Below the pieces are notes generated by a model, which had not been told where the DNA came from, did no database searches, and saw only the letters and a program-made list of their open reading frames with translations. The position numbers and the translations under genes are program-made. This document shows positions 2,872 through 42,549 of a stretch of 64,000 nt of DNA, one piece after another; within the stretch, counting starts at the first letter, position 1; each line of letters starts with the position of its first letter. Source of the DNA: Vezdaea acicularis (Eukaryota); assembly GCA_026025075.1 (NCBI GenBank), contig JAPEUI010000004.1:186001-250000 (forward strand), given 5' to 3'.

Positions 2872-4397
2872 ATGGACATCTCCGGTCTGGTCTCGTATGA
2901 TCACCTCGGCTCCCGTGCCACTTCTTCCGCCGCTTCGTCCCGGGGCATGATGATGCCCCACCTCGATCTCAATCTGGCGTCCTATCCTCAATCCAACATG
3001 GACGGTTTCGTCGGATTCCCCTCCGCCGGCTATGGATATCACCAGATGACCACCGCCGGCTACCAACAGATGCTCCCCGCATACTCCACCCCGTACCAAC
3101 CAATGTCCCATCCCGCGCCGATGCAACCGGTCCACGACGTCCATCCAGGTCTCCCACACGTTCGGGATGCCCTGGATGGTCTCGCGCGCGATGGTGGGAG
3201 CCCCATGGTGAAGAGTGAAGATGGATCGATGTACCGAGGGTACCCCCCTCATCATGAGCAGGTCGATACCTACTCCGTCGACAGCAAGATCTCGACATCG
3301 ACCGTCTCGAGCGGCGAGGCCCACTTCGCGACCGACGTCGACACCCTCATGAAAGCCATCCAGGCCAAGTCCAAACCGAACCCCCAGCGGAGGCTTCCCC
3401 TCCCCAGCCAGTCTCCTCAGACCATCCGGTCCACCATCGCGCAACCACAGCTGTATTCGGGAGGCTACGCGCAAGAACCAGCATACGCGGACGCCGGGAT
3501 GGCCGTGCCCAAGACTCAGCGGTCGAAGAAGCGATATACATGCGAGATCCCCGGCTGTTCCAAGAGTTTCTTTCAGAAGACCCATCTGGAGATTCACACG
3601 CGAGCGCACACCGGAGTGAAGCCATTCGTAAGCACCTTCCACACGCTGTCTGATCTTGACGACGAGCTTCAGCTGACCCCTTGACTAGGTCTGCAAAGAC
3701 CCAACCTGTGGTCAGCGCTTCTCCCAACTAGGGAACTTGAAGGTTGGTTGACTCATGATCCTCGGATGTGATCACTCTGGAAGCCTAACTTGCTCCCCGC
3801 AGACTCATGAGAGGAGACACACGGGTGAACGACCGTACCAATGTGATGTCTGCGGCAAGCGGTTCGCCCAGCGGGGAAACGTCCGAGCGCACAAGATTGT
3901 GCACGAGCAGAGCAAGCCGTTCCTATGCAAACTGGAGGACTGCCGTAAGCAGTTCACACAGCTAGGAAACCTCAAAGTTCGTCGCTCTTTCCCATCCCCC
4001 AACTAGATACGCTCGAAACTAAACGTCCCCGGTGCAGTCCCATCAAAACAAGTTTCACGCGCAGACGCTGAAGCACCTCACCTTGAAGTTCGCCACGATG
4101 CGGGAGGGTGACCCGGTCTCCGCCGCCGACAAGGAGCTCTGGGAGTACTTCGCCACGCTCTACAAGAATTCCAACAAGGGCATCAAGGGCCGCGGCAAGG
4201 ATCGTAAGATCGCCGGGCCCAACAGCCCGCACAAGCGTGACGACCGCAGCTGCAGCAGCGATCTCAGCGGCCGCAGCGAGAACGGCCAGAGCCACCACGG
4301 CGCGTACGACTTCAACGAGGGGATGGATGTCGAGGGGGACGACCACGACGACCGACGGCCGACCGATTTTGCGTTCGCCGATCGGAAGATGTATTGA
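2872..4397 (+). CDS. AZF1: C2H2 zinc-finger transcription factor, Azf1-like (4 exons)
   Basis: Four C2H2 fingers across spliced exons ([91 protein letters not shown]) followed by the Azf1-type tail [20 protein letters not shown]. Introns at about 3628-3688, 3743-3802 and 3977-4037. Confidence 0.9.
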
Positions 4398-17930: not shown

Positions 17931-19118
17931 AATGCTGTTATGGCTTTTTTGATAGTTTATTGGCGGAGCTATAGCAGCTAAGCAAGATGAACGCCGCTTA
18001 AAGCTTAGCTTAGAGAAAGTAATAATCAAATCCTCTTCCTATATATGCTCAATGGCGCTATCCTGATAGCTCATCATCAAATAATCTTATTTATATACTA
18101 TAGTTATGATATATAAGACTTTATAGCAATTTTCATTATATATATTCAATAATTAATGTTCAAATTTGAAGTAATTTTGTATAAAAACGTTCAAAAGACT
18201 GTGATAATATTAAATAATAAATGATATAAATAAATAATAAATAAATGAATAAATATTAACAGAACTATAGAAACTGCTTAAAAAATATATAACTTATCAA
18301 TCAGGAATTAAAAAATATATTCAAATTTTATAATATATTTGCATTAGCTTTTAGAATTTTTAAACTTTTTGGAACAAATAAAAATATAAACAAACGGCTT
18401 TATTATCTTATATATTTTTTGCAAGAAGGCAAAATTATTTGAATTTTTATAAACATACTATTATAAAAATAGTCAACGGTTTTGCTAAAACTTGTTGACA
18501 AAAAATGCTGATTTGTTAAGGTTAAATCAGAATAAATTCAATCAATAGCTTTTATATCTATATATTTGATTGCAATATTATATTGACTTGTCATTAAATA
18601 ATCTATTACATATGATTTTAAATTAATTTTTATTTGTTTATATTTTAATTGTACATTTTTACATATTATATATATCTAATTATAGTAATTATATTATTTA
18701 TATACATTAAGCATTACATACGCCCTTCTTACTAGAAGCAAAAAGCACCTATTATTCAAAAGGCAGATCTTATATCTGTTCTTACACATAAGTATCTCAT
18801 ATGGTTCATGTATCTCATTAATGTAATACATTTACTTTTATATTAAATATTCAATTAAAAAATTTATTTATTCTAGACATAAAAATAAAGATTTAAATAT
18901 GTCCATGATATGTAGATAAGTAAAATATTTAAACAATACTAATATTTCAAAAAATAAACTTCTATTAAAAAATTAATCCAAAATTGACATTCTAAAGTTG
19001 TGTATAAATTTTATGAGATCAAAAATCTGCTTTGTTAGACCTAAAATTTACATTTGAAATATTGTAAGCTTCATAGTTGGCTTGCGTGTATCAAAGTACA
19101 ATGTTGTGGGGGTTACTA

Positions 19119-26374: not shown

Positions 26375-29300
26375 CTAAAAGCCGTAGTACCCCGCAGCTG
26401 TACGTGATCTGGCTAGGCTGGCAGCATAGCGCGAAGCCGCACGCCGAGGACTTCCGCGGTCACGATGAGTCTCGTAGTCAAGCTCGTATGCCTCCTCAAT
26501 CTCTGCGAGGGGTGTTCCACGGTCGTACTGGGATCGGCGTCGGCGTTGTTCGTCGCGATGATACTGTCCAGCCCTGGGGGCAAACAGACCTACGTTGAGT
26601 TTTGAGTTAGCTGAGGATAGCGGGGATCAAACTTGACAAGAACCCTACCAACGTGTTCAGCGTTCTCTACGCTTCGGCGCATTTTGCTTGGGTTATCAGG
26701 CCCAGGAAATGGAGCCTCTTTACCAGCATCAGAGCCAGTGCCTGTGTAAAATATCTTGAAGAAGTCAGCCTGCGTTGAGTAGTCTTATTGACTTGCTGCT
26801 AACCTTAGGACGAAAAGACGGACATTCAAGCATCACAGAGCTGTTTCGAAATTTCTGGACGAGGCAGTCTTTCCCTTGAATAGCTTGGAGCACCCATTAG
26901 TAAACATGGTCTGAGTGGAAATTTGTTAAAAATTACTAGCATAGGAGACCTCAGCCACTTTATCACTATTGAAACGATTCCTAAAAGGCGTTAGAAGATA
27001 GTGATCTGACTCACGGTGGGTAAGAAGATATCGAGTTTACGCACCATCGTCTCCCAGCCCGAGCTCTAACGAACTTTAAACCACTCAGCACAGATCAGAG
27101 TTGCAAAAGAAGCGCCGCTTACATCAATGATATCAACTGGCTAGAAAATCTGTCAGTAAATTCTCGTATAAAGCAAGGCTATTTTCTTACATCCACAAAA
27201 TTGATGAAAGCATAGCCCACGCTACGACCATCAGACCAAAGGACGAGAGGTTTTCTTCATCAAACTCACTTGCAGTTATTGGCAAAGTCTATCAAGCCGA
27301 AGTTTTAGCTTTTTGCGCTGGGCCCCTTGCTTTGATGGCTTGACTCACCAATACGCAGATACAAGAAGTCGTATTTCGCTGCGCTAGTCTCATCAATGAT
27401 ACTCCTCAATAGCGGCTGTGACCACGTTAGCTGAGAAACGCTAGACCGGGGGTCAATAGTGGAGAGCTGAGCACCTCTTCAATACGATTTGGGATGTTCC
27501 GGAGCATGATCTGGAAGGGTTCAGGATTAGCCTTCCATCGAGAATTTGAGGGGGTCGAGGCTCGATTACCGTTGTCCTGACGTCTAAGCCCTGGCTGATT
27601 CGTTCGATATCGACGACGTTGTGGTGACCAGACGAGTACTCATCTCGACGACTCGCTCTAGCACTACCACGCTGTTGAGGAGAATAACGGGCCCCTAGAT
27701 GACGCAATGACTCTAGGTATACCTGACCTTCCCCAATTGTACCAAGAGGGTCGAAGGTACCTCTCAAAGCTCGATGATGGTAGCTTACCTCGGGGGAATG
27801 ATGATAAGTAGCTCGACCATGCTGCGTCAGAATTTCGGTCGCACAGCTAGGAGCGGGTCGACCTGAGATAGGACGGAGTTCTTCGAGGGTGCCGTTCTGT
27901 AGGAGGTAGTTATTGTCGGAGGTATAAGGGTGAGAGTCGATGATTAGACTTCTATCGAACCGAGCGACGTTGGCGACACCAGGTCCGATTCTCATACGGT
28001 CCAATTCGTCGTATAGAGGTGAAGCCTCTTTAAAAAGATCAGAGGATCGACCACTACTGTTGTGCATGGAGACTTCGACGATGCAACTCTGTTTCGAAGG
28101 ATTTATTAGTAGGGTCCGATGGAAGCCGTTGATCGTTACGTAGAGACAGGAGGGTAATAAATCGTTGCGTTTTGACTTACATTAACTTTAAAGCCAGACA
28201 GAGCAGATATAGCACGACCAGCAGCTCTGAGGTCAAAGAAGTCTGCGCAGATGCGGACGCACCCAAGATTTTGTGATCCCAGAGCTTTGAAGCTATGAAT
28301 ATCCCCGTAGTTCATAAGGAGCTCTTGCAACAGTCTCTGAATTGCAGAAGAGTCAAATTCCTGAGCTCGACTAGTGTGAATTCCTGTAGCAATGACATTG
28401 GACCCCGTGGTAAAGGTGAATGCCCTTCCGGAGTGCTCCGGCGAAAGTTTCTTTATATAGGTTAGAACTAGGAAGAGATGGCTTTAAGCGGAACGAGAGT
28501 ATCTCTTACCAACGCGAATTGTACAGTCGAAGAGTAACCAACTTGCCATTCCGGGTGTAGGCTACGTGTCTCGGCAACGGCTTTCTGGGAGTCACGGATG
28601 TCCCAAAAGCCAACATACACTGTTCCGTGAATTGACAAGTCAGTGTAGACTGGTCCGACAACCGTTGGAAAGTTAGAGATCTGCAAAGCCAATCAGTAAT
28701 AAGCACTACCAAGCAAGATGGGGCTCATCATTCACCTTGAATAGAGTGGAAAGCTCATCTACTGTGACGCCCTTAACTCCGGTGAGTGTTATAGCGCGGG
28801 AGATGCTAGCTCCAATGCCATGAAAGACAGGGACAGGATACTTGGAGGAGCTTGCGCTTGTGCCAGAATAATACTGATGCTGATTAGAATCATGACTGGC
28901 ACTTGGCGAAGTAACGTTGCTTAAGGTTGCGTCATGGTTGGCGTAGTAACTTGCACCTGAGGTTTGTAAAGCCACAGACATCGGATGTCGGGAGATGTAA
29001 GGGTCTGAACCTCTAACAAAGGAACCGGGGGCCGCCGCTTCTGCATTCGCAGGTACCTTGTAGGATGACGCTGTGCTGGCAACGAGATGGTAATCGCCTT
29101 GGGGGGGGCGATAGCGAGCATCTCGAAGGCCATCGCTCAGGGCGAAGGGCGTGAAGGAGGAAGCCATTGGAGACAGCTTTTGTTCCGAAGACCTATTTCT
29201 AGCAAGCATAATAGATTCACCCCCTTTGAGCCGTGTTTCTTCAACATTACCCTCCACAAAAGGATCAACTGAAGCCGTTTCCCCTCCATTGATAAACCCA

Positions 29301-29485
29301 TGTAGGAAATATGTAGGGAGCTTCTGAAGAGCCGATGAGAGGTCGAGCAATGGCACCTTGGCTAGCTTAGGGGCACCTATAGTCGTCATACCGTCGGCAA
29401 TGTTGGGAGAGATAGCAGTAGCTTTGGTTTCTGGTGTAGAGCCATGGCCGGAGTGGCTTCCGTTGGAAGATTCGGGACTATCCAT
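26375..29485 (-). CDS. mei2: Mei2-like RRM protein (many short exons; 5' end uncertain, additional upstream exons likely)
   Basis: Mei2-type RRM3: VVDIERISQGLDVRTT/IMLRNIPN/YDFLYLRI/DFANNC/VGYAFINF/NRFNSDKVAE/IQGKDCLVQKFRNSSVM; tail PFPGPDNPSKMRRSVENAEHVG/LFAPRAG...RRRRSQYDRGTP. Confidence 0.85.
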
Positions 29486-31080
29486 CACAGAAATTTCTCC
29501 TGCAGGGGATAAAATAGCGTGTAAAACTTTAATGATGTAGGAATTAGCATGTTTCAAGACTTAGCGTGCACCTGGTTTTGAAAGTAGTGCCATGAGCACA
29601 ATCTAGCTGATTGAGTAACCATACCTTGCTACCAGATATCGATTGGATGGTCGACTTGAAGGATTATTTCCTATGGTCTTAAGTTAGTAAGGAAAAGTCA
29701 TGAAGACAGCCCAAATGAAGCAGGAGAAGGTGTAGAAAGGGATGGAAACAAAGAGAAAACCACAAAGCTGTGAATTAGAATAATCTCATATCCGGCTAGG
29801 CTAGGGTGCATTGTTCTGACGTCTAGATATTACTTGACCAAAGCGGCTTCCGCTAATTTTGGCCATTATGTATTCCTTTAAGAGAGTGCTAGAAGTGAGC
29901 ACACGGCTCCCACGGTAAGGAGAAGATCCCTCTCACGATAGAGCACAGAAGAGGGGGAAAGGGAGTAATAACAGAGGCGAACTTAAGACGTAGTCTTCCA
30001 GTGACATGCCAAGATCATCAGTGGAGGTCTCGTTCAGTGATAAGAGTCCCAAAAACTGAGGTCAAAAGAGGTTCCAGAATTGTTGCACGTATGAATCAAG
30101 AGGTATGAACGCTTGGGTACTTATGAGGTTGCAGAAGTCTTCGCAAGGCACCGGTTCATGAAAGAGCTGGTTTCACTTACTCAATTCTGCGTTACTTGAG
30201 ATCTCGGCAGATGGAAGAGATTTCCTTGGAGATAGAGGGCAGGATCTCGACACCTTGAAAGAGGAAGGTAAATGGAAGGTAATCCTTCGCAAGAGGTTGA
30301 TCGTAGTATGTAAGAGACAAAGAAAAGGCGTGGTTAGGAGAGCATTCCCGGAAAAAGAGAGGGTACGGTGCGTATAAGCGGAGAGGAGCGGGAAGACGGA
30401 TTTGTGGGAAGAGAGGTGGGAGAAATCGTCCAGTCCCAGAACGGAAGGGCATTCACAGGAGGGTCAGAACTGGAGGAAGCTGGGTCCCGAAGGCTAAGGG
30501 GGCTGAGCTCTCCATGTAGCCGGAGGTCCAACAGGGTTCACCACTACGGGCAGAAGACATAAGAAGGCGCGAGCGGGCCGTAAGAAAAGACCTATCGAGG
30601 AGTTGCCCTCCTGCGATAGGTCATGCGAAAACATAGCAGCCTTATCCGGCGCGGCTCCTTTCAATTTACTCTAGAGACTCTAATACGCAGTACTGGTCCA
30701 AAGGAGGCAACGGAGCATGGTCCCGGCTAACCTTTGGTGCGGGAATATTGGGGGTTGGATGCGGCCCCATCTCTGGAGATTTGGGCGACTCAATGGCTGA
30801 GTCTTTGGCGATGGCAGGCACAATAGGGTAACTGCTCGCCTAGGCTACAGTACCAGGTCAAAAGTCTGAATCCTTTAGCGAAAACACGCTTAAAATCGCC
30901 ATTTTTGACCTTTTGCAACTCACAATGTAAAATCGACCAATGCATAAGATACTCCAGAATTCAAGTGGCTAAACAAGAAATGGGCCTAGTTTATCTTATA
31001 ATTTATCTGAGTTGATTGATACACTGTCGCTGTGCATAGACCGCTGCAAACCCGGACATGAATTCATTTTATCGATCTGC

Positions 31081-31345
31081 TGTCATGATCCCGCCTTCCC
31101 GTGACCCAAAGCTACGACTAGCCTGCGCTACCCCTGCGTCACGTGACCACCGTCATATGGCAAAGCGGGGAAGCGCTGTAGAATAGCTCCTCAGTATTCA
31201 ATCGTATAGATACTTACTATTGACTACTAAACTATTCTATCCTCGATTGCGTACCGCCTGCGTGTCTACTGCGTGCCCACTGCGTTCCGCATCACTTATC
31301 CTGATTGATCCTAGCCGCTCCCTGCTCGTACGCTACATCCTTACA
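31081..31345 (+). repeat. 5' LTR (265 bp)
   Basis: TGTCATGATC...CATCCTTACA; identical by eye to 38869-39133. Confidence 0.96.
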
Positions 31346-31348
31346 ATT

Positions 31349-31358
31349 ATTGAATACT
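31349..31358 (+). promoter_or_regulatory. Self-priming (Tf1-type) primer-binding site
   Basis: ATTGAATACT is the exact reverse complement of AGTATTCAAT at 31193-31202 inside the LTR; no TGG-type tRNA PBS is present. Confidence 0.75.
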
Positions 31359-31388
31359 CCACCCTTGAGCAGCCGGCAGCAAGAGATC

Positions 31389-32582
31389 ATGACGGACATG
31401 ACCCCAATACCGACACGCAAGAGAGACGCAAGTCCCACGCAGGGCAGAGCATCGTCCGGTACTGCTCCTACCGCGGCCACTGCCTCAGAAGAGCAGGAGG
31501 GACGCAGGACTCCCGCATCCGATGAAGAGATGCTAGATCCTGAAGAACGAGAAGAGAGGATTGCCCAGATGCAGGCGGAGGCGTATGAAGTGGAACGGCA
31601 GCAGGAGTATCAGCGTCTGCTGCGCTCCAAGGAAAATGGCTACCTCTCTACGCAGGCTAATCCATTGCCTCGCCAGGGTGACGCAGGGGAGCCGCAGGGT
31701 AACCGCCGAGGCACAAGCCCTTTGCAAGCGGAGGTCGACGCAAAGCGTAGGAAGACTATCCGGGATGAGGAGAAGGATATACCTCTCCCCAGCGTCAAAG
31801 AGTACAAGGGGGAAAGCTATAAGGAGTTTAGGGACTGGGAAAGACAGTTGAAGGTTTGCTTCGAGACAAGGCCTACCTCTTTCGATCGAGACTCTCAAAA
31901 GGTCAGGTTCGCGCGGGGGAAGCTCACGGGCACCGCAGGCGAGGCCTGGACTCGGCTTGATGAGGGCAAAAGCTATACTTGGGCAGAATTTATCCAGTTT
32001 TTAAAGAAGCAAATCACCTCGGACGCTGGCGCTGCCCTTGGTGATCTGACCGGCTGGTGCAACTGCAAGCAGGGGGGCCGCACGGTCAGCGCAGTCGTCA
32101 ACGAGATTGACGACTTTGAGTCTCGAATGGAGCGATTCCCGGAGACCACTCGAATCAACATCCTCGTGTTGGCTATGCGAGCATCGCTCCGTAAGGAACT
32201 CATGAGGAATGGAGTACTCCCTACAACTAGGGAATCTGCCATCGCTCAAGCAATGACCCTTGAGACAGCGGAGCAGGAGGACCGCAGGCGGGACGCAAGG
32301 GAGCCGCTAGGGCGACAACCTACTTCGTGGAAGTGGAAGGCCCCAGAGAAGAATACTCCCAAGGCGAACCCTTACCCTGCGTCAGGCGTCAACGTGGAGC
32401 CACCCCGCAGTGCCTATGCTACCGAGTCCTTTGGCGCACGAGGGTCGGTCCCACCAAACACAGACCGCAAGAAGAATGCTACTTGCCACTACTGTAACAG
32501 GAAGGGCCATTATCAGGCGGAGTGCCGCAAGCTGCTCGCAGACACCAAGCAGTCGCCGCAAGTAAAAGAGCCCGGGTCGTAG
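31389..32582 (+). CDS. gag: Retrotransposon Gag
   Basis: Open frame with capsid-like region (QKVRFARGKLTGTAGEAW...TWAEFIQFLK) and CCHC knuckle CHYCNRKGHYQAEC. Confidence 0.92.
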   Translation: MTDMTPIPTRKRDASPTQGRASSGTAPTAATASEEQEGRRTPASDEEMLDPEEREERIAQMQAEAYEVERQQEYQRLLRSKENGYLSTQANPLPRQGDAGEPQGNRRGTSPLQAEVDAKRRKTIRDEEKDIPLPSVKEYKGESYKEFRDWERQLKVCFETRPTSFDRDSQKVRFARGKLTGTAGEAWTRLDEGKSYTWAEFIQFLKKQITSDAGAALGDLTGWCNCKQGGRTVSAVVNEIDDFESRMERFPETTRINILVLAMRASLRKELMRNGVLPTTRESAIAQAMTLETAEQEDRRRDAREPLGRQPTSWKWKAPEKNTPKANPYPASGVNVEPPRSAYATESFGARGSVPPNTDRKKNATCHYCNRKGHYQAECRKLLADTKQSPQVKEPGS

Positions 32583-35500
32583 ACGTTGCCTCCGTCCTAC
32601 TGACCCGCAATTCCAAGAAGGGAGCTCACACCATGTTTATCTCCGTTGAGATACGCAGAGGCAACGCTCCAGCCACGCTACTGAGAGCGTTGGTCGATTC
32701 AGGGGCTTCGTTGAATTTCATCTCGCAGCTAAAAGTTAAAGAGCTAGGTCTCAGGGGTAACGCAGACGCACCGCAGGGGATTCGCAGTCTTAGCGGGCAC
32801 CTCATCTCTACGTTTCAAACCCATGACCTCGAGACTCATATGGTAGATAGCAATGGCAAAGCCCGGCAAATGAAAGATGCCTATGTCGCCGCAAGTTTCA
32901 CTGGCTGCGATCTCATACTAGGGATAACGTGGCTACAGGAACAAGATCCGGATATCCGATGGGCGGCCGAGACGCTGGTTTGGAGGAAGAACCTCAGCCC
33001 GAATACGCCGAACGCTGTGGAGATACTCTCTCCAATTGCCTTCGCGGCTTGCATAGCCGAGGAAGGTTTGAGGCCATACCACATAACGGCCACGCAAGTG
33101 CCACGCACGGGTACCGCAGGCGGCCTATTTGGAACAACCACGGAGGCTCCCCTGCCTAAGGAGTACGCCGACTTCGAGCGAGTGTTCTCTGAGGAGGGCG
33201 CCAATGAATTGGCGCCCCATGGACCTCAAGATCATGAGATTGATACTCAAGGGGAACAGCCTCCATTCGGGCCGTTATATCCGCTATCGAATCTGGAGCT
33301 CAAGGCTCTTCGAGAATACATCAGCGACAACCTTGCGAGGGGCTTTATACACCCCAGCACCTCGCCTGCGGGGGCGCCCATCATCTTCGTCAAGAAGAAG
33401 GATGGCACCTTACGGCTTTGCGTGGACTATAGGGGGCTAAATAAGATCACCCTAAAGAACCGCTATCCCTTGCCCCTTATCGGCGAAGCGCTGGATCGGC
33501 TTGTAGGCGCCAAGGTCTATAGCAAGCTGGATATCCGTTCAGCGTATAACCTTATACGGATAAAGGAGGGCGATGAGTGGAAGACTGCGTTCCGCACGCG
33601 GTACGGACACTTTGAATATAAGGTGATGCCGTTTGGCTTAGCAAATGCTCCCGCCACCTTCCAAAGCTACATCAACTATGTCCTGCGCGATTTCTTAGAT
33701 GTCTTCTGCATCGCGTACTTGGACGACATACTGATATTCTCGGACAACCGAGACGAGCACACGCAGCAGGTACGCAGGGTCCTCGCACGCCTCTCTAAGC
33801 ATCGACTATTCGCAAGACTCGACAAGTGCGAGTTCTATGTGAAGCAAGTCGGCTTCGTAGGATTCGTCGTTCAACCAGATGGCGTGGCCATGGAGCAGAG
33901 CCGGGTCGCAACGATTCGAGACTGGCCTCTACCAAAGACTCACCGGGACATCCAAGTCTTCTTAGGGTTCGCAAACTTCTACCGCAGGTTCATCGCAGGC
34001 TACTCGCAGGTGGCACGACCCCTGAATGCGCTACTGCGGGACTCGGTAAAGGGGAAGTTCCCAGGTCGAACTCTAGTCATGTCCGAAGACGCTTTACGAG
34101 CGTTCGACGAGCTTAAGCAGTGCTTTGTGACTGCGCCAGTCCTGCGGCACTACGACCCGGAGTTGCACATTCAGCTGGAAACTGATGCGTCTAAGTACGC
34201 CATCGCCGGAATCCTTTCGCAGCAAGACGCAGTAGAGGCGCAGGCGCATTGGCGGCCGGTCGCCTATTGGTCTCGTGGGCTTAAGGAGGCAGAGCTGAAC
34301 TACGGGGTCGGAGACGCAGAGATGCTGGCTATCGTTGAAGCATGCAAGCAGTGGCGCCATTACCTCGAAGGGGCCACGCATGCGGTGCGCTGTATCACCG
34401 ATCATGCAAACTTGACTACGTTCCTAAGCACCAAGACCCTCAGGGGCAAATACGCCCGCTGGTGGGAGATACTATCGGCGCTAGACCTAGATATCTCCTA
34501 TCGAGCAGGGAAACTCAACCCAGCGGATGCACCATCTCGGCGACCGGACTACGAGGAGCGAGCCCGGCGTGAAGAAGCCGCCGCCCTCGAGCACACAACC
34601 GGCAACGCCACAGGAGAGTCGACGCCCGTAGACGTCGCATGCGTGATTGCTGCGGCCTACCTGCGGCGTGACCTTAGAGAGATAGCAGCTGATGAAGGAC
34701 CTATACGGTCAAGCGTAGCAGGTCCCAACGCTACATCCTCCCTTCGCGTGTGGGCCTCCTTCCGGCTTGCTAGAAGCGGCCGTCCATTGAAGGTGGTGCC
34801 TATCGGCGAAGTGCGAGAGAGCGCGAGAACAGAGAACGCATACGCAGACCCCACGCAGGAGTTTCGCGCGCTTGTCTCAAAGCTTCAGAAAGACAATGCG
34901 TTCGCACAAGAATTGATCGCCTTCCTGCTGGCCCCCGAGGGACGCCGGGTAGCCGGCGCCGGGGGTGCACAGGGGGACGCAGGCGTACCGCAAGGGGTAC
35001 CGCCTGGGGGCAAAGACCCCAAGTGGAAGGCTCATCAGGGGCTACTATTCCATGATACTCAGATATATCTGCCACCTCCCTCAAGGGGCGAGGCGATGCG
35101 GAAGAACCATGACGACCCCCACGCGGGCCACTTTGGATATCTCCGCACCTACGAAACAATAAGAAGAAAGTTCTATTGGCCAGGCATGTCAAAGGAGATC
35201 AAGCAGTATGTACGCACGTGTAACGCATGCGCGCGTATCAAGACTACGAGGCATCAGCCTTACGGGGAACTTCAGTCACTACCAGCACCGAAGGGTGTGT
35301 GGAAGGATCTTACCATGGATTTCATTACAGATCTGCCGCCTGCGGGACGCAGGGGTACCGCATACGACGCAATCCTGGTGGTCGTGGATCGCCATTCCAA
35401 GATGGCGCGATACATCCCCACGCGGAAGAGCTTGGACGCTGCGGGTCTCGCGGAGCTATTCTATGAGCACGTTTGGAGAGACTACGGGGTCCCAACGTCC

Positions 35501-36436
35501 ATCGTATCAGACCGGGGAACCCAGTTCACTTCGAACTTCTGGTCTACTTTCTGCTTCCAGCTGGGCATCCGGCGACGCCTGAGTACCGCTTTCCACCCGC
35601 AGACGGACGGGCAGACGGAACGCCAGAACCAAACCCTGGAGCAATACCTCCGTAGTTATATCAACTACCAGCAGGATGATTGGGTTGACTGGCTGGGGAG
35701 TGCTGAGTTTGCGTATAACAACAGCGTCCAGACCACGACGAAGCACACCCCCTTTTTTGCAGTTAGGGGTGATCACCCCAACACAGGCGATGAGATCCCG
35801 CGGGATGACTGCGACATGCCTGCGGTAGCCGTGCGTGTCGCTGCCCTTGTTGAACTACGGGAGGAGATGGCTAGGAATTGGCAGGCTGCGGTGAGGAAAC
35901 AGGCGGAATACTACGATTCCAGCCACAAGCCTATGGAATTCGCGATTGACGACAAGGTCTGGCTCTCCGGAAAGAACATCCGTACCGCGAGGCCATCCAA
36001 GAAGCTAGACCATAAATACTATGGTCCGTATCGCATTAAGGACGTAGTGGGGGAGCAGGCGTACCGCCTGGACCTACCGACAGGAACCAAGATACACCCC
36101 GTATTTCATGTGTCCTTGCTGAAACCTTACCACGCCAGCGAAGGCCGCAGCGATACGGCTGCGCTGCCCCTGCAAGTTCCTGGCGAGGAAGACCCAGTCA
36201 TCAGCGCCATCTTAGACAGCAAACTGCGTTATGGTAAACTGTATTACCTGGTGTCCTATGAGGACAGGACAGACGCCGAGAATCAATGGCTCGCCGCGGA
36301 TGATCTGGGAGCGGCGCAGGCGCTGCGCAGCATAAGCGCTGCTTTCCACGAGCGTTATCCCCTTAAAGCTGACAAACTGACAGAGGATCAATATCAGAGA
36401 GGGCCCAGGCAGAAACGCAAACGCGCAGTGAGATAA
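32522..36436 (+). CDS. pol: Retrotransposon Pol polyprotein (protease, RT, RNase H, integrase, chromodomain); -1 frame relative to gag
   Basis: ALVDSGA; LRLCVDYRGLN, MPFGLANAPATFQ, YLDD; ETDAS; HHCC zinc finger (HDDPHAGH...CNAC); MDF/SDRG/HPQTDGQTER; chromo-like ILDSK...YLVSY...ENQW. Confidence 0.96.
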   Translation: MPQAARRHQAVAASKRARVVDVASVLLTRNSKKGAHTMFISVEIRRGNAPATLLRALVDSGASLNFISQLKVKELGLRGNADAPQGIRSLSGHLISTFQTHDLETHMVDSNGKARQMKDAYVAASFTGCDLILGITWLQEQDPDIRWAAETLVWRKNLSPNTPNAVEILSPIAFAACIAEEGLRPYHITATQVPRTGTAGGLFGTTTEAPLPKEYADFERVFSEEGANELAPHGPQDHEIDTQGEQPPFGPLYPLSNLELKALREYISDNLARGFIHPSTSPAGAPIIFVKKKDGTLRLCVDYRGLNKITLKNRYPLPLIGEALDRLVGAKVYSKLDIRSAYNLIRIKEGDEWKTAFRTRYGHFEYKVMPFGLANAPATFQSYINYVLRDFLDVFCIAYLDDILIFSDNRDEHTQQVRRVLARLSKHRLFARLDKCEFYVKQVGFVGFVVQPDGVAMEQSRVATIRDWPLPKTHRDIQVFLGFANFYRRFIAGYSQVARPLNALLRDSVKGKFPGRTLVMSEDALRAFDELKQCFVTAPVLRHYDPELHIQLETDASKYAIAGILSQQDAVEAQAHWRPVAYWSRGLKEAELNYGVGDAEMLAIVEACKQWRHYLEGATHAVRCITDHANLTTFLSTKTLRGKYARWWEILSALDLDISYRAGKLNPADAPSRRPDYEERARREEAAALEHTTGNATGESTPVDVACVIAAAYLRRDLREIAADEGPIRSSVAGPNATSSLRVWASFRLARSGRPLKVVPIGEVRESARTENAYADPTQEFRALVSKLQKDNAFAQELIAFLLAPEGRRVAGAGGAQGDAGVPQGVPPGGKDPKWKAHQGLLFHDTQIYLPPPSRGEAMRKNHDDPHAGHFGYLRTYETIRRKFYWPGMSKEIKQYVRTCNACARIKTTRHQPYGELQSLPAPKGVWKDLTMDFITDLPPAGRRGTAYDAILVVVDRHSKMARYIPTRKSLDAAGLAELFYEHVWRDYGVPTSIVSDRGTQFTSNFWSTFCFQLGIRRRLSTAFHPQTDGQTERQNQTLEQYLRSYINYQQDDWVDWLGSAEFAYNNSVQTTTKHTPFFAVRGDHPNTGDEIPRDDCDMPAVAVRVAALVELREEMARNWQAAVRKQAEYYDSSHKPMEFAIDDKVWLSGKNIRTARPSKKLDHKYYGPYRIKDVVGEQAYRLDLPTGTKIHPVFHVSLLKPYHASEGRSDTAALPLQVPGEEDPVISAILDSKLRYGKLYYLVSYEDRTDAENQWLAADDLGAAQALRSISAAFHERYPLKADKLTEDQYQRGPRQKRKRAVR

Positions 36437-36681
36437 CGCGGGACCCATGCAGGCCCCGCGCTGGCTCCATGCCGGCGCCTCCGCGCTACTCACAATTTCT
36501 CCCTTAAAAGGATCGAAGCGCTGACGAGACACGAGGAAGCTACAAGGCGGATGTGGGCGGTCAGGCACGGGAGTTGGGGACAGATAAGGGGAGAGAAAAG
36601 TAATCTATGGAGCTAGCTAAGCAATCTGAGCAATCTAAGTAATCGGAGCTATCTAAGCTAAAGCTGCGAGGCAACTGCTAC

Positions 36682-38387
36682 CTAGGCGAATGTCATCCAC
36701 CCCATGTGCTCCTCAACGGGGTGCTGTTCGATTCCTCCAGCGCCTTCCGCCGACTCCTCGTCCTCCCAGTCTTCCTCGTTCTCCGCTTCTCCTTCGTCCT
36801 TCTCGCCCTCCTTGTTCTCCGCAACCGCCTCGACATTGTCCTCGGAACCCATCTCTCCATCGGAAAGAGGGCGCTCCTCGGCGGACGCCCACGCAGGCGA
36901 GCCCCCGTCGCCCCCCTCGAGGGCAGCAGCAGAAGTTTCCGTGGGCACAGGGGAAGAAGGAGCGGCGCGACGTCTTTTAGCTACTCTGTCCGCAGCTTGT
37001 CGCCCAAAGACAACCGCGGAGAGATCGGAGAGCGCAGGAGAAGGGGAACGACGGCGTTTAGATACCTGAGTGCTGTCCTTGTCGGCGGCAGCGAGCCTCG
37101 TGCGGCCCTCAGGCGCTGCTTCGTGATCGGTCTCGGCGTCATCGTCAGTCTCGCGGAAGACAAACTCCTCGGAGATAGCGGCTTTTCCCTTGCCCTTGGC
37201 CTTCTTCTTACCTTTGGCCTTGCCCTTGGCAAGGGCGGCGAGTTTTCTGCGGGCCCCTGGCGGAATAGGGATGGCACCCTCCAAGGAAGAGGTGTCGTCG
37301 GAGACAAACTCCTTGCTCTTGGCCTTAGCCTGAGACTTCCCTGCGGTGTTGACAGCGGACCCCTTGCGGCCCTTGCGCCCTACCTCCACTGTGATCTCCT
37401 CCTCTCCGCCCTCCGGAAAGTCCTCTACGCCCTCCAAACTGGACTCGGAGTCAGTACTGAGGCCCCCAGAAGAAAGTTCCAGTGCGGCGTCCCGGGAAGA
37501 GCCAAGGAAGGCGGAAAACCCTTTCCTTGCAGGGGGAGCGCCGGAGCGGGAGGAGCGCTGATGTTCAGCCGGGAGCTGGTCAGGGGAAGCGGCAGCGGAT
37601 GGAGTCACAAGGAGACCGCCGGTAGAGGAACCGCTGAGAGGCGGTGGGACGACTACGGTGAAATCGTCAGGGTCGACTACTTGCCCGAGGGCCAGAGAGG
37701 GGAGTTTCGACTAGCAAGAGGTTAGCAAGGGTACCGCAGAAGACGAGAGAGAGGAATAAGACAGGCGCAAGGGATAGAGCGTACGTTATAGCGCTCTATA
37801 TCCACCAACGCTTCAAGCGCGCTGGCGATGCGCTCTACCGCCTTCTGCTTCGCGCGAGCGGCGTCCTCCACGTTGTTGCCGGTTATGTTGACTCTGCGCC
37901 ATGCCATCACCTCGATAGCATAGCGGCGGATGAGCTTCGTAAAAGCCTTTTGAGCCGGCTTATAGCCAGGGCACTTCTTGGCTACAGGGAAAGCTAGTAC
38001 AACGGTGCAAGCGGGACGCAAGGGGGGAGCAGGGACGTACCAGGACCAGGGAAAGAATTTCGAAGCGCCACGAGTTGGTCAGAATACTTGAGAAGCTGAT
38101 TCGTGACAAGATGGAAGGCCTCGGGGATCTGTGAGGCGTTAGCAAGCCACGCAAGGGCGACGCCGGATACCCACATCATGACAATGATGCTTATTGTGTT
38201 GGCATCGCACACACTTGTGGAACGCCGCGGTACGCTCACAGCGCAACCCGGGCTCGAGGGGCAGATTCTGTACACAGCGAAGGCAGGTACGTCGAGACAG
38301 CGGCGGCGTACCGGCGACGCGCGGAGGGGGGACACCAGCGACAAAGGGCCTCTGCGGCGAGGGACCAGGCTGGATAGACGACATCAT
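36682..38387 (-). CDS. Antisense, spliced accessory gene of the retrotransposon (508 aa; Cys6 zinc-cluster-like N-terminus)
   Basis: Exons 38387-38175, 38128-38041, 37981-37785 and 37710-36682 join into one frame of 1527 nt. Introns are GTGGGT..GCTAAC..CAG, GTACGT..TAG and GTACGC..GCTAAC..TAG. Confidence 0.8.
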
Positions 38388-38853
38388 AGGGAAATATTGA
38401 AGAAAGGCCGGAGCGTCCAGAGAAGAGGCGGAAAGAGAAGGATTCGCCGGAGCGCTATAGTCGTGGAGACTGCGTGGCGAGTGAAAGTTCGCAAGGCGAA
38501 GTTGACAATGTGGCACATGGGGCCTAACCCTAGGACACGTGCCACCACGCAAGCTCCCCGACACGCCTCACAGGTCTATTGGATGATACTAAGGAAAAAG
38601 ACGCGCCATAGCGTTACTATGGCCTTGCAGGCGGCAAACCTGCGCTACCCCTACAAAGCATCAGAGATACGGCAAGGGTTACTGCCCACACTGGGCCGAA
38701 GGCGTCAAGGCGACCAAGGGGCATCAGCGAAATCATTTCACTAAGGGGCTCAGGGGGCACGCTTGCGTAGCTCCTGAGCTACGCCTGCGTGCCTACTGCC
38801 ATACTAAGAATGAAAAAGGAGTTAGGGACATAGGCTGCGGGGACCGCAGCCTT

Positions 38854-38864
38854 GGAGGAGGGGG
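38854..38864 (+). promoter_or_regulatory. Polypurine tract
   Basis: GGAGGAGGGGG just upstream of the 3' LTR, preceded by a 9-bp hairpin AGGCTGCGG-GGA-CCGCAGCCT (38832-38852). Confidence 0.85.
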
Positions 38865-38868
38865 TAAT

Positions 38869-39133
38869 TGTCATGATCCCGCCTTCCCGTGACCCAAAGC
38901 TACGACTAGCCTGCGCTACCCCTGCGTCACGTGACCACCGTCATATGGCAAAGCGGGGAAGCGCTGTAGAATAGCTCCTCAGTATTCAATCGTATAGATA
39001 CTTACTATTGACTACTAAACTATTCTATCCTCGATTGCGTACCGCCTGCGTGTCTACTGCGTGCCCACTGCGTTCCGCATCACTTATCCTGATTGATCCT
39101 AGCCGCTCCCTGCTCGTACGCTACATCCTTACA
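38869..39133 (+). repeat. 3' LTR (265 bp)
   Basis: Direct repeat of 31081-31345, followed by TSD TCTGC. Confidence 0.96.
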
Positions 39134-39777
39134 TCTGCCTAAGAAACTCGTCAAATTTTGGTGAGATCAAATGATCAGAAAATTCGGTGCAACTTCTAAA
39201 AATCATTACACAACCCATAGAACAGCTAAGATCCTTGAGCTTATATATATTTATATTCAATCAATTTCAGATTTTTTGAGGGGTTTTCAGCATCATCATA
39301 GCATACAAATTCCCAACACAAAGCCTATTTGACATCATCGAGAAATGGCGATTTTAGGCGTGTTTTCGCTAAAGGATTCAGACTTTTGACCTGGTACTGT
39401 AGCGCGTCACTTGTGGCTTGCGGCTCTGGAGAGGCCATAGCAATCTAGTTAGCGCATCCGCAGATTCTGGATGCGGTAGTGCAGGAGCTGCCCATTCAGC
39501 AAGAACCTCCCCAACTTTGTCTATGCACCTAGCCGTCGAGACCTTCAGCGAATGGCTCCATCGCATGCTAGAAGTACCGTACCTGAGGAGAACCTCAGCT
39601 GATGAGGGTTTTCGAAGTTTTTGAAACCTTGGTGTGCTTGAATAACCTAAGCCTTTGCCCAATTGCTGCACACCATCGAGTTCCATTCCAGCGTAGACGC
39701 TAGGATATATACCCCTTTCCCTTGAAAAAGACAATGTCTGGAAATTGACCAGTGGGATAGCACCACGGAGTAAGGCA

Positions 39778-42549
39778 ATGCCTTCTGCCGTTCTAGGTAG
39801 AGATGAGCCTGTGAAAGCTGTCGAGAAAATAGTCCGGTCCTCCCCCGAAGACGGGTATGTAGACCAGGTGGCATTTGCTATCAAAGAGGCAGAGCAGTCC
39901 AACCGAACCCTCCAGCTCGTCCAGAGCCTTTCCCAACTGGCGGATGAGCGTGAAGCGGATATCCAGCGAATGTGTAATTCGCATCATCAAGAGTTCGTCA
40001 CGTCTGTCGATCATCTCCTACGCACCCGGGAGGGAATGGTCGCCTTAACCTCGGAAATTCTTAATCTCAACCAGAAAATTCAAATAAGCACAGAGAAGCT
40101 GGCAGAGCAGAAAAAGGCCTTGGTTGATGCTAGAGGGGTTCGACACAATATTGATGAAGCTACGCAAAGTCTCAAAGACTGCTTAGAGGTCCTACGGTTG
40201 GCAAACCATGTCCATGAACTTCGTGACAAGAAGAACTACTACGCTGCATTAACAGCATTGGCTGAGTTGCAGAACGTCCACCTAAAAGAAATCACAAATT
40301 ACAAGATTGCGGAACTGATCCAAAAATCTGTGCCCGCCACACAGAGGGATGTAGCGAAAGATGTAGTAAGGGAACTGAATGAATGGCTACACAAGATTCG
40401 TGAAACCTCTCAATTTATCGGCGAGCTTGCATTCTACCACACATCACTTAGGAAAGCCAGGCACGAGGAGAGGATGGAGAAGCTCGCCTCTAGTGCACAA
40501 TTCAAACTCAATTCTGCGATTGAGCTAGTTTCAGACGAGACAGAAGACTTCGATGTCTTGGACAATGATGAGGTGCAGGTTGATTTCACTCCTCTTTTCG
40601 ACTGTGTACATATCCATGAGGAACTTAGCCAGATCGATAAATTTCGGCTGGAGTACGCGATGACGCGGAACGAGCAAAAGAAGTTATTGCTTCGTATTCC
40701 TGTTGATTTGACGGAAGTCAATCAAACATCTCTCAGTGGACTTCTTGAAAGCATCGCAGGATTCGCTATCATAGAGCGAGCAACGCAAAAGAGAGCGAAT
40801 GGGCTTCGATCACCGAGTGATGTAAGTCACCTTGAATCCCGTAGCCTTCTCATTGATTGAATTGGGCGAAGGTCGAAGACTTATGGGATTCGATGTGTCG
40901 AAGCGCTGTGAATGTGATGTCTGAAGCCCTCAACAGGGTCGACAGCGCAGAATCCCTCCTAAAGATCAAAGGTCTTATAGCTCTTTTTATTCAGACGATG
41001 GATGTGAGAACTTCTGTAAGCCCTGAACCTATCCGTAGCGATGCTAAGGTGGCTGAAGGGATGGGACTACTCGGTTGAGGCTCTTGATTCGTTCCTTTTG
41101 AACCTGTTTGAGAAATATGCCGAGCTTTTGAAGAAAAAATGCAGTGACGAGTTTCAGGCAGTATGTAGAACGGCCCCGGTATGCTCCATTCTTGCTTGTC
41201 TGCTAATGATCTTTAAGATTGTCCTGGCAGATGATTATATGCCGATGCCTATTAATGACTTGGAGGAGTATGATAAGTTGGTGCACGTTAGTTGGTATGA
41301 TCCAGGAAAAGGGAGAGAAGAATTGGAGTAGGTCGTACTTGCCAGCCCAGTGAAATCTTACTTACTCTCTCAGTTTTCCATGCGTGCTCCCTTTCTCACA
41401 GATGTATCCACTATGCTGCATCGAAATAAGGAACTTTCTTAATCAGTTCTACTTTTTCTCTGATGATCACTTCGAGCATTCGAGCATAATTGATGAAACC
41501 CTGAGAAAAGTGAGTCAACCTCTGTTCCATCCCATTGTTCTTACCATATGCTCATATGATTCTTTTCAAGTCCCTTGATGAACTGTTGTTAGAAAAGATC
41601 TGCGAGCCGCTCGTAGAACGGCTACAGACGCAGTATCTCGGTCAGATAGTGCAAATTCTCATCAATTTAGAACATTTCGAAACGGCTTGCGAGGAACTTG
41701 AGCAGCTTCTTATTGCGGCTAGATCCTCAACGTCCTCTCATGGCCCCATTACTTTTAATGCGACTGAAGCCTTTAGAAGCCATAAAAAGACGGCTGAAAA
41801 GCGGATCTTCGAAGTGGTCAACTCTAAAATTGACGCGCTTATTGAGACAGCTGATTACAACTGGTAGGTCGATCCTATTTATTATTATTTCAATTGCATC
41901 TTCGGTTTGATTGAATCGTAGATTTAATGCTTCACAGGATGGCGTATAGATCTCATACAGAACCGAGTAATTACATGCAGGAACTGACAAGATACCTGTC
42001 TGATATAATGAGCTCAACTCTTCTTGGGCTCCCTACTGATATCAGTCGGCTGATATACTTTGATGCTCTTAGTCATGCTGCAAGCAGGATAGAGGTAAAT
42101 CCCTAATCACTTCCAAGCAGCACGTGAACCTCAATTGATGAAGAATTACAAGGCTTTACCTCTGTCAGATGATGTTAAACGCATCAACGTAAATGGTGCC
42201 AATGCGCTTGCCGTGGATGTCTCATACCTCACCGATTTTATTCTCAGTCTGAACGATAAGATCCTCCTTGAGACCTTCGAGGGCCTTCAACAAACGGTCA
42301 ATCTACTTAAAGCTGGAAAAGATGCTCAGGCTGAGTTCCAGGACCCGGTCATTGGGAATAAGAAATATAATAGGATAACCCTTGATCAAGCCTCAAAACT
42401 CTGGGGGAAGTAGGTTTCCTCTGCCCGCTTCTTAGCCGAGCTCAAAAATAGTGACTAACCCGAGGACTTACAGGATCGTCGATCCACTCCAAAGCCACAC
42501 CACCATGGACAAGCTTACGAATCTATCCTCTAGATTTGGAATGAAGTAG
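39778..42549 (+). CDS. SEC15: Exocyst subunit Sec15
   Basis: READIQRMCNSHHQEFV, VDFTPLFDCVHIH, IAGFAIIER, DDYMPMPI, LPFSQMYPLCC, YLGQIVQILINLEHFE, VNSKID. Confidence 0.92.

Follow-up and report, generated by a model that had tools for sequence, protein, structure and literature searches.

The window analysed here, a stretch of 64,000 nucleotides from Vezdaea acicularis, contains an LTR retrotransposon of 8053 bp with open gag and pol frames, which encloses a gene in antisense orientation. The element is flanked by a target site duplication (TCTGC, read from the flanks at 31076-31080 and 39134-39138) and bounded by two plus-strand LTRs of 265 nt (5' LTR with TG...CA ends, 31081-31345; 3' LTR, 38869-39133) that are 100% identical to each other. 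The gag frame is open from 31305 to 32582, and its translation from the first ATG (31389-32582, plus strand) carries a CCHC knuckle near the end (weak match to Pfam zf-CCHC, E 0.026). The pol gene (32498-36436, plus strand) is an open frame of 1312 aa, shifted by -1 relative to gag. It contains protease, reverse transcriptase, RNase H and integrase in this order, followed by SH3_Tf2-1 and a weakly matching chromodomain (Pfam matches: RVT_1, E 3.5e-35; RT_RNaseH, 1.2e-30; Integrase_H2C2, 1.8e-20; rve, 4.7e-09; SH3_Tf2-1, 9.9e-21). A polypurine tract, GGAGGAGGGGG (38854-38864, plus strand), is located immediately upstream of the 3' LTR. With its LTRs, target site duplication, CCHC-containing Gag and PR-RT-RNH-INT order, this is a Ty3/gypsy LTR retrotransposon; the identical LTRs, the duplication and the open gag and pol frames show that it is intact and was inserted very recently.

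The original prediction, made from the DNA letters, spoke of a young chromovirus. Its youth is evident from the identical 265-nt LTRs and the target site duplication, whereas the assignment to the chromoviruses is weakly supported: the pol C-terminus matches Pfam Chromo with 14 bits (E 0.048), under the cut-off of 25.1 bits, and in a sequence search against the PDB all 14 matches at E<=1 were HP1/CBX chromodomain proteins (best E 0.014). No second copy of the element is present within the 64-kb window, and an Rfam scan and a tRNA scan of the window gave no match each.

Structure of the antisense gene

The distance from the pol stop (36436) to the start of the 3' LTR (38869) is 2432 nt, and much of it is filled, as originally proposed, by the antisense gene (36682-38387, minus strand). 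Its four exons of 213, 88, 197 and 1029 nt add up to 1527 nt, encoding 508 aa and a stop codon. Exon 1 (38175-38387, minus strand) contains the start codon(s), a Pro-rich leader and a cluster of six cysteines; exon 2 (38041-38128, minus strand) encodes helix 1 of the N-terminal domain and exon 3 (37785-37981, minus strand) its helices 2 and 3; exon 4 (36682-37710, minus strand) encodes a tail of 342 aa, predicted to be disordered, and the stop codon. The exons are separated by three minus-strand introns: intron 1 (38129-38174, 46 nt, phase 0, GTGGGT...GCTAAC...CAG), intron 2 (37982-38040, 59 nt, phase 1, GTACGT...TAG, with only a near-consensus ACTAGC) and intron 3 (37711-37784, 74 nt, phase 0, GTACGC...GCTAAC...TAG). 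Note that the phases 0, 1, 0 are fixed by the exon lengths. All coordinates and numbers of the original prediction (four exons, GT-AG introns of 46, 59 and 74 nt, phases 0, 1, 0, 508 aa) could be reproduced, and the GCTAAC branch site that it had assigned to two introns was found in introns 1 and 3.

On the upstream side, 481 nt separate the antisense ATG from the 3' LTR. This region (38388-38853, minus strand) is the putative promoter and 5' UTR; it contains a CT-rich tract and, at 38536, a CACGTG. Downstream, the 245 nt that lie between the two stop codons of pol and of the antisense gene form a spacer that is likely the 3' UTR of the latter; it contains an 18-nt tandem repeat in 2.8 copies (36609-36658, Tandem Repeats Finder).

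Evidence for a protein-coding gene

To judge the length of the spliced frame, we determined the longest ATG-to-stop frame in the pol-to-LTR region that can be assembled with at most three introns of 40-100 nt and the same donor/acceptor consensus. In the real region this frame has 512 aa on the minus strand and 331 aa on the plus strand, while in 60 dinucleotide-preserving shuffles the median for the best of both strands was 129 aa and the longest frame had 303 aa; none of the 60 reached 508 aa. The 512-aa path of this search is 4 aa longer than the 508-aa gene model. Furthermore, codon asymmetry in exon 4 favours the minus strand by 0.20 bits per codon with a table from gag and pol and by 0.11 with a host table (calibration genes, 0.12-0.31), corresponding to totals of 68.6 or 38.3 bits for minus over plus.

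The gene model was also compared with database proteins. The product of exon 4 is identical to a database protein, P0001, and intron 3 is also present in the public gene models of P0001 and of a second protein, P0002. Both models run into intron 1, where they cannot be aligned; beginning with the boundary of exon 2, their identity is 92%. The public gene model at the locus misses the Cys-rich exon 1, and the gene is not flagged as transposon-borne. Independent support, also for the missing part, comes from a more distant protein of 155 aa, P0004, which aligns colinearly with exons 1-3 (residues 2-163; 46% identity in 162 columns, E 5.5e-45 in pairwise blastp). Its N-terminus is 51% identical to exon 1, with all six cysteines and three histidines conserved; the alignment is gapless over the junction of intron 1 and has a 7-residue gap beside that of intron 2. 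This colinearity and the same six-Cys spacing support the start codon as well as the junctions at introns 1 and 2.

It could be argued that the spliced frame merely results from GC-rich sequence or from a sense ORF, and that the locus gives rise at most to a non-coding antisense RNA. Indeed, a mirror ORF on the plus strand is open across exon 4 (36643-37725, 360 aa), GC by codon position is similar on both strands, and exon 1 has a slightly negative codon asymmetry (-15.1 and -10.9 bits for the two tables, 71 codons). However, the observed spliced length was matched by none of the 60 shuffles, homology to P0004 extends colinearly through three exons with conserved Cys and His, the asymmetry of exon 4 amounts to 38-69 bits for the minus strand, and the plus-strand ORFs have no Pfam match. 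We therefore consider a non-coding origin of the frame extremely improbable. Judged from sequence, the intron-containing antisense frame between pol and the 3' LTR appears to be a genuine protein-coding gene, and its predicted place inside a retrotransposon is borne out by the enclosing LTRs and target site duplication.

Properties of the protein product

The 508-aa product is predicted to consist of a Pro-rich leader, a Cys6 (+His3) cluster, a basic module of three helices and a disordered tail. Residues 1-166 are basic (pI 9.9), and the 342-aa tail has a pI of 4.8. The features listed in the original prediction are all there: the cysteines are spaced C-x2-C-x11-C-x8-C-x2-C-x6-C, and the tail has a Lys-rich patch and two KRRR motifs, at a distance of 26 residues from each other. 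The C-terminus contains Trp and Phe and is acidic (28 D/E vs 3 K/R in the last 88 aa).

In AlphaFold models, the N-terminal domain has three helices (pLDDT 60-81), and residues 116-453 of P0001 have a pLDDT below 50 nearly throughout. The Cys region is modelled with low confidence (pLDDT 54-70). A Foldseek search of the PDB with the P0004 model (mean pLDDT 61.6) gave nothing at E<=0.001, and the best hit of the same model in VIA-align wide was a designed three-helix bundle with a Z score of 8.9, a value that helical models commonly reach. Sequence searches of the PDB with exon 1 and with a family profile (A2) gave nothing meaningful; for the profile, no chain was found at E<=10. Altogether, neither the Pfam nor the PDB sequence or fold searches returned a match that would assign a function to the product. 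A match of the tail to SBDS_C (P0002, E 0.0022, 18.3 bits vs a cut-off of 27; P0001, E 0.25-0.38) was rejected as low-complexity. The self-association score for two copies of P0004 residues 31-155 with zinc was 0.00 vs a mark of 0.32, a value that is uninformative either way.

Affiliation of the cysteine cluster

The product had been described as Cys6 zinc-cluster-like. In Gal4-type Zn2Cys6 domains, in which six Cys coordinate two zinc ions between them and which recognise DNA half-sites of the CGG type, the cysteines follow the pattern C-x2-C-x6-C-x5-12-C-x2-C-x6-8-C. The first loop of the antisense product, with 11 residues instead of 6, is five residues too long for this pattern, and the spacing is identical in P0004. 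In hmmscan, neither exon 1 nor P0004 matched any Pfam family at E<=10, although a very weak match could have been lost, since most of those above about E 0.1 are removed by the HMMER filters. In the Gal4 sense, therefore, the description is not supported. A divergent but true Gal4-type factor, with dimeric DNA binding and activation via the acidic C-terminus, would account for the six cysteines, for the second half of the cluster (C-x8-C-x2-C-x6-C), which fits the Zn2Cys6 pattern, and for a layout that resembles Gal4 in the succession of an N-terminal Cys cluster, helices, a long linker and an acidic aromatic C-terminus. Nevertheless, we regard such an origin as very unlikely, as Zn_clus (PF00172) is among the families without a match at E<=10, the long first loop is conserved in P0004 and is devoid of the conserved basic residues, and the family profile matched no PDB chain at E<=10. 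The three conserved histidines, which further distinguish the product from PF00172 proteins, allow other arrangements of a putative zinc site.

Another candidate affiliation is with DUF3716 (PF12511), that is, with six-Cys proteins of other fungal transposons, in which case the antisense product would be a distant member of a broader transposon-associated Cys-rich superfamily. The lead comes from the ESM Atlas, where PF12511 is carried by 28% of the members of a cluster that exon 1 retrieved at rank 13 (score 0.78); it is a weak lead, the score being within the range reached by shuffled sequences, and hmmscan of exon 1 and of P0004 gave no PF12511 match at E<=10. According to the available part of PMC8232023, DUF3716 is found in REP9-1 (193 aa, six Cys) and REP9-2, small accessory proteins of REP9, an active transposon of Zymoseptoria. 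REP9 is a class II, IS3EU-like element, though, unlike the LTR retrotransposon described here, and the language-model lead is the only link between the two. Kinship with DUF3716 proteins is accordingly doubtful, and the antisense product most probably belongs to a protein family that has not been described.

Distribution of homologues

Among 1.84 billion representatives, only three proteins are related to the product at E<=0.001. P0002 is 92% identical to it in the folded part (87/95) and 78% in the tail (267/342), and a further protein, P0003, is 68% identical to the tail (225/332). In P0002 and P0003 the frame is kept and the folded part is more conserved than the tail; the three sequences show no variation in the two KRRR motifs or in the last motif of the C-terminus. 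Hence, the gene is not unique to this copy, having diverged copies (P0002, P0003) and a distant relative (P0004). The latter stops where exon 3 ends; it may derive from a genome or from assembled transcripts, or may represent a truncated model.

Further searches added no relatives. A word-based search with exon 1 for longer proteins confirmed 0 of 37 candidates, and one with the exon 2-3 region returned only P0001 and P0002 among 388 candidates. Pattern scans with A1 and P0004 gave no confirmed match among 285 and 52 candidates, respectively, in metagenome contigs and among 224 and 2 in viral contigs, and the conserved W-R-x-V-N-I-T-G-N motif, converted to a degenerate DNA pattern, had no match in viral contigs. 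Of the gypsy relatives that are complete in IMG/VR (pol identity of 32-41%), 14 of 14 have only 77-644 nt after pol, without any match to the protein, which implies that the antisense gene is an addition in this lineage.

Accessory gene or passenger?

The accessory genes of LTR retrotransposons are likely the raw material of retroviral regulatory genes. To our knowledge, almost none of them has a known function, and for fungi we know of brtn as the sole reported case. The locus described here offers a clean example, i.e., a young intact element, an antisense gene with three introns, a conserved putative metal-binding module and nuclear-type motifs, and could serve as a tractable system for asking what antisense genes do for their element. 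We consider it on the whole probable that the gene is an accessory gene borne by the element, of the antisense type located between pol and the 3' LTR; in its element context it is known from this one copy.

The main rival is that a host gene, or a gene of another transposable element, belonging to a small Cys-rich family of Ascomycota was captured between pol and the 3' LTR as a passenger with no role in the life cycle. P0004, with just 155 aa and ending at the end of exon 3, would fit this, and so would the nearest ESM Atlas clusters, which consist of unnamed Ascomycota proteins of 120-198 aa (best score 0.92, 203 shared features, 157 members; a lead only). They suggest a free-standing family of small proteins to which the tail exon was added here. 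The absence of the gene from 14 of 14 gypsy relatives points in the same direction, and an origin by transduction has been discussed for plant antisense ORFs (PMC11963269, available part). However, the element has transposed together with the gene, as seen from the identical LTRs and the target site duplication; the gene with its three introns is still intact; and the frame is kept in three diverged copies, with the folded part more strongly conserved. Note also that capture and later function are not mutually exclusive. A mere passenger thus seems to us rather unlikely.

If the gene is an accessory gene of the element, its transcription would start either at a promoter of its own, within the 481 nt that separate the ATG from the 3' LTR, or at the LTR, used in reverse orientation. 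The introns of the gene would survive each cycle of retrotransposition because they read CT...AC on the genomic (plus) RNA and could not be spliced from it. The product is cysteine-rich and probably nuclear; its motifs suggest that it binds zinc and enters the nucleus by means of the KRRR pair. A function as a nuclear regulator is inferred from the basic N-terminal domain, the disordered tail, the two KRRR motifs and the acidic C-terminus. In the nucleus, the protein may regulate transcription of its own element or the chromatin state of the latter, or serve as an adaptor in this, a role that would be similar to that of HBZ or Grande gene23 rather than structural. In the most far-reaching version, it would be the element's own zinc-binding regulator and a counterpart of retroviral antisense and trans-acting factors, binding via Cys6His3 and the three helices, while the acidic aromatic C-terminus switches the LTR on or blocks silencing by heterochromatin or RNAi; the N-terminal domain would stem from an unnamed family of small Cys-rich proteins that is spread across the Ascomycota, may be allied to DUF3716 and was repeatedly recruited by different classes of fungal transposons. 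Taken as a whole, this scenario is speculative and unlikely to be correct in all its parts.

Comparison with known antisense genes

The brtn gene is reportedly an antisense gene of Boty-like Ty3/gypsy elements in Botrytis cinerea and Sclerotinia (attributed to Zhao et al. 2011, Virology 417:248). For Boty, Grande, RIRE2, Retand and PvRetro13, ORFs that lie antisense between pol and the 3' LTR are listed in the available part of PMC7264820. The third-gene system of the original prediction thus belongs to a kind already described. The position that defines such ORFs there (aORF-3R), opposite to gag-pol and between the pol stop and the 3' LTR, is the one found here (36436 and 38869, respectively). 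A close counterpart is Boty, likewise an ascomycete gypsy element with an antisense gene between pol and the 3' LTR; its chromodomain-type pol may be a further shared feature (available parts of PMC7264820, PMC4227169, PMC8365987). These partial descriptions of brtn mention neither a Cys cluster nor three introns. Beyond Boty, we found no such arrangement in the literature on fungi.

The plant aORF-3R (gene23 of maize Grande, those of rice RIRE2 and Phaseolus PvRetro13, the TRP28 ORFs of Retand in Silene and others) share position and orientation with the gene described here, and their function is thought to be nuclear or regulatory; for Grande, a nuclear protein and an own promoter are reported (available parts of PMC7264820 and PMC11963269). 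According to the same sources, Retand also has short tandem repeats in the region between pol and the LTR, as at 36609-36658 here, with an interval of 2.9-6.6 kb vs 2.4 kb in the Vezdaea element. The plant genes differ in belonging to another kingdom and to other element lineages, and the Vezdaea product has no Pfam match to TRP28 or SMC.

Among retroviruses, HTLV antisense genes are mentioned in passing in the available part of PMC11963269. As for the mechanism, HBZ may serve as a working analogy, although it is a bZIP protein of a vertebrate retrovirus without sequence or fold relation to the product described here. The gene for HBZ of HTLV-1 is located close to the 3' LTR on the minus strand, its main mRNA is spliced, and the protein, which is nuclear and has basic patches as well as a region of the activation type, modulates transcription of its own element. 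Antisense accessory genes have been described before, in a few elements of plants and fungi; what is new here is a variant with a Cys-rich product of an undescribed family.

A very young Ty3/gypsy element in the window

An LTR retrotransposon of 8053 bp occupies positions 31081-39133 of the window. Its two LTRs (31081-31345 and 38869-39133, 265 nt each) are 100% identical and have the termini TG...CA; the 5-bp duplication TCTGC is present on both flanks of the element. A polypurine run, GGAGGAGGGGG, ends 4 bases short of the 3' LTR. The gag frame (31305-32582, first ATG at 31389) encodes a CCHC knuckle close to its end and is overlapped in the -1 frame by pol (32498-36436, 1312 aa), which has strong matches to the Pfam families RVT_1, RT_RNaseH, Integrase_H2C2, rve and SH3_Tf2-1. 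The chromodomain of pol is weak (Pfam Chromo, 14 bits vs. a cut-off of 25.1); among PDB sequences, all 14 matches of the last 128 pol residues at E≤1 were HP1/CBX chromodomain proteins (best E 0.014). On account of the identical LTRs, the target site duplication, the intact gag and pol frames and these Pfam and PDB matches, the element is a very young, apparently autonomous Ty3/gypsy element and probably a chromovirus. RIP-like depletion was not seen in it (GC 0.571, TA/AT 0.96), and the 64-kb window contains neither a further copy nor a solo LTR.

About 560 nt downstream of the element starts a plus-strand ORF (39697-40860) with a match to the N-terminal domain of exocyst Sec15 (E 4e-55), and minus-strand ORFs (28706-29560) lie on the other side of the element. 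The insertion, in the region 29560-39697, is therefore intergenic and promoter-side, i.e., of the type seen with Tf1-type elements. The motif CACGTG (as CACGTGAC) is found once in each LTR (31140 and 38928) and a third time at 38536, upstream of the antisense ATG; CTGCGT occurs three times per LTR with 11-nt spacing (31258-31285 and 39046-39073). These motifs are possible shared regulatory sites, although the CACGTG pattern may be chance, as there are 12 CACGTG in the whole window. Elsewhere in the window there is a sharp AT-rich island (18001-19000, GC 0.19-0.20 vs. 0.47 around it) with a TAAATAA-type short tandem repeat inside (18211-18259) and RIP indices that are not clearly raised, as well as a GC-rich stretch (1-4000, GC 0.61) in which each strand has a long open frame at 2677-3684; that of the plus strand has a weak C2H2 zinc-finger match below the cut-off (E 0.00085).

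Structure and coding strand of the antisense gene

The original prediction had placed a four-exon gene on the minus strand between pol and the 3' LTR (36682-38387), and its exons (38387-38175, 38128-38041, 37981-37785 and 37710-36682) were reproduced exactly on re-check. They comprise 213, 88, 197 and 1029 nt, together 1527 nt, and encode 508 aa plus stop. On the minus strand, intron 1 (46 nt) runs from donor GTGGGT to acceptor CAG, intron 2 (59 nt) from GTACGT to TAG and intron 3 (74 nt) from GTACGC to TAG. GCTAAC, which had been claimed for two of them, is present in introns 1 and 3, and intron 2 has a near-consensus ACTAGC. As a chance control, dynamic programming was used to find the longest ATG-to-stop frame with up to three such introns of 40-100 nt in 60 dinucleotide-preserving shuffles, the better strand being taken for each. 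The median was 129 aa and the maximum 303 aa, and none of the 60 was as long as 508 aa; in the real sequence the longest path had 512 aa on the minus strand, a slight difference from the 508-aa model, and 331 aa on the plus strand.

Two plus-strand mirror ORFs lie opposite the antisense exons, 36643-37725 (360 aa), the open frame opposite exon 4, and 38100-38744 (214 aa). GC content by codon position did not distinguish the strands. We scored codon asymmetry, i.e., log2 of codon frequency divided by the frequency of its reverse complement, with tables trained on gag and pol or on nine Pfam-matched host ORFs; known genes gave 0.12-0.31 bits per codon in cross-calibration with either table. Exon 4 scored +68.6 bits (0.20 per codon) with the gag+pol table and +38.3 bits (0.11 per codon) with the host table, and these positive values favour the minus strand as coding. 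The respective values for exon 3 were +23.2 and +0.1 bits. Exon 1 (71 codons) scored -15.1 and -10.9 bits, which counts against the gene model; however, the exon is rich in Pro and Cys, and homology to the database protein P0004 extends over it (see below). Since neither plus-strand ORF matches a Pfam family and their codon asymmetry is unfavourable, both most likely arise as by-products of the gene on the minus strand.

Relatives of the antisense protein

A word-based search with exon 4 among 5.8 billion proteins (8000 candidates scored) found three proteins: P0001 (453 aa, 100% identical), which is the window's own gene model, P0002 (462 aa) from a different contig, and the unnamed P0003 (344 aa), corresponding to exon 4 alone. 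The first two are both named hypothetical protein of a fungal MAG, with no mark of transposon origin. Their gene models have introns 2 and 3 exactly as proposed and begin within intron 1, thus lacking the Cys-rich first exon (intron 1 and exon 1 together cover 38129-38387 in the window). Between P0001 and P0002 the intron 1-derived stretch cannot be aligned, whereas identity is 92% from the first residue of exon 2 onward, a change that would be expected at a true intron-exon boundary. The two share 87/95 residues in exons 2-3 and 267/342 in exon 4; P0001 and P0003 share 225/332 in exon 4.

A full HMMER pass with a profile of these three proteins over 1.84 billion representatives returned only P0001, P0003 and the new P0004 (155 aa, E 4.3e-9). 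The initial Met of P0004 aligns with the second ATG of the window gene; the protein shares its Pro-rich leader and has the identical C-x2-C-x11-C-x8-C-x2-C-x6-C spacing, passes the exon 1/exon 2 junction without a gap and ends where exon 3 ends. Compared with the spliced window product assembled in silico (blastp), it shows 46% identity over 162 columns (residues 2-163, pairwise E 5.5e-45), and all six Cys and three His are kept. P0004 thus independently supports the start codon, exon 1 and the first two junctions. Junction 3 is based on frame continuity and the public gene models.

Features of the protein

All features that the original prediction described were confirmed in the product: its Cys spacing, a helical stretch, a Lys-rich patch, two KRRR motifs and an acidic end. 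Residues 1-166 are basic (pI 9.9), the tail (167-508) acidic (pI 4.8); the last 88 residues contain 28 D/E vs. 3 K/R. When three sequences were aligned, no variation was seen in either KRRR motif, in several short Ser/acidic/hydrophobic motifs or in a last C-terminal motif containing Trp and Phe, and the Lys-rich and Glu-rich runs were of variable length. The AlphaFold model of P0004 (from an alignment of four rows only; mean pLDDT 61.6, pTM 0.56) has disordered residues 1-30, a Cys region with little regular structure (pLDDT 54-70) and three helices (73-91, 96-125 and 130-154). These three helices were again predicted for P0001, with pLDDT <50 across nearly all of 116-453. The predicted layout reads like that of a transcription factor, in that a folded, basic N-terminal part is followed by a long disordered linker carrying basic patches and then by a C-terminus that is acidic and aromatic.

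The protein had also been called Cys6 zinc-cluster-like; in the Gal4 (Zn2Cys6) sense this is not supported, as it failed on both spacing and Pfam profile. Exon 1 and P0004 matched zero Pfam families at E≤10, no PDB chain was matched by sequence, and fold searches returned generic helical bundles only. With the three conserved His, the protein might have two separate tetrahedral zinc sites rather than a binuclear cluster.

In the ESM Atlas, P0004 adjoins a 157-member Ascomycota cluster that has no name (203 shared features, score 0.92), and 28 of its 30 matches are clusters without a Pfam family. Exon 1 alone matched unnamed Ascomycota clusters (up to 0.89) and, at rank 13 (0.78), a cluster with DUF3716 in 28% of members. 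We regard these neighbours as leads only. Six-Cys DUF3716 proteins are described as accessory genes of the Zymoseptoria DNA transposon REP9 (PMC8232023). The parallel is suggestive; neither exon 1 nor P0004 matches the DUF3716 Pfam profile.

Origin and putative role of the antisense gene

As the gene lies between the two identical LTRs of an insertion that has a target site duplication, we infer that the latest retrotransposition copied it, introns included. The introns would persist because, in antisense orientation, they are not splice substrates on the genomic RNA. For comparison, 14 complete gypsy elements (32-41% pol identity) from IMG/VR, a collection of viral contigs, were analyzed; they are probably retrotransposons of fungi, or transcripts of such elements, that were deposited as viruses. 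Each carries terminal direct repeats (27-123 nt) and has a total length of 5.5-6.4 kb; in all 14, only 77-644 nt follow the pol match, and tblastn found no match to the antisense protein. The gene is therefore an addition in the lineage of the window element rather than an ancestral gypsy feature.

The main rival explanation, that the element captured a gene belonging to a family of small Cys-rich proteins of Ascomycota and carries it as a passenger, seems to us rather unlikely. Gene structure, position inside the element, conservation pattern and predicted order and disorder are established directly, and we consider it fairly probable that this is an element-borne accessory gene encoding a nuclear, zinc-binding regulator or adaptor. 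It would be transcribed from its own promoter within 38388-38868, and its product would bind zinc, enter the nucleus via the KRRR pair and act on the element's own transcription or chromatin.

Published examples of antisense ORFs located between pol and the 3' LTR come from the plant elements Grande, RIRE2, Retand and PvRetro13 (PMC7264820, PMC11963269) and, in fungi, from Boty of Botrytis and Sclerotinia, with the gene brtn (PMC7264820, PMC11963269, PMC8365987, PMC4227169). Retand is also reported to have short tandem arrays in this region (PMC11963269); in the window, an 18-nt tandem repeat (2.8 copies, 36609-36658) is part of the 245 nt that separate the pol stop from the antisense stop. 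In our literature search, no antisense gene of Cys6 type with three introns came up for any fungal LTR element. The gene is real and clean and of a kind already known, and its role is a putative one. HTLV-1 HBZ is one of its two nearest working analogies. The other is gene23 of Grande, which is described as nuclear and as having its own promoter (PMC7264820).
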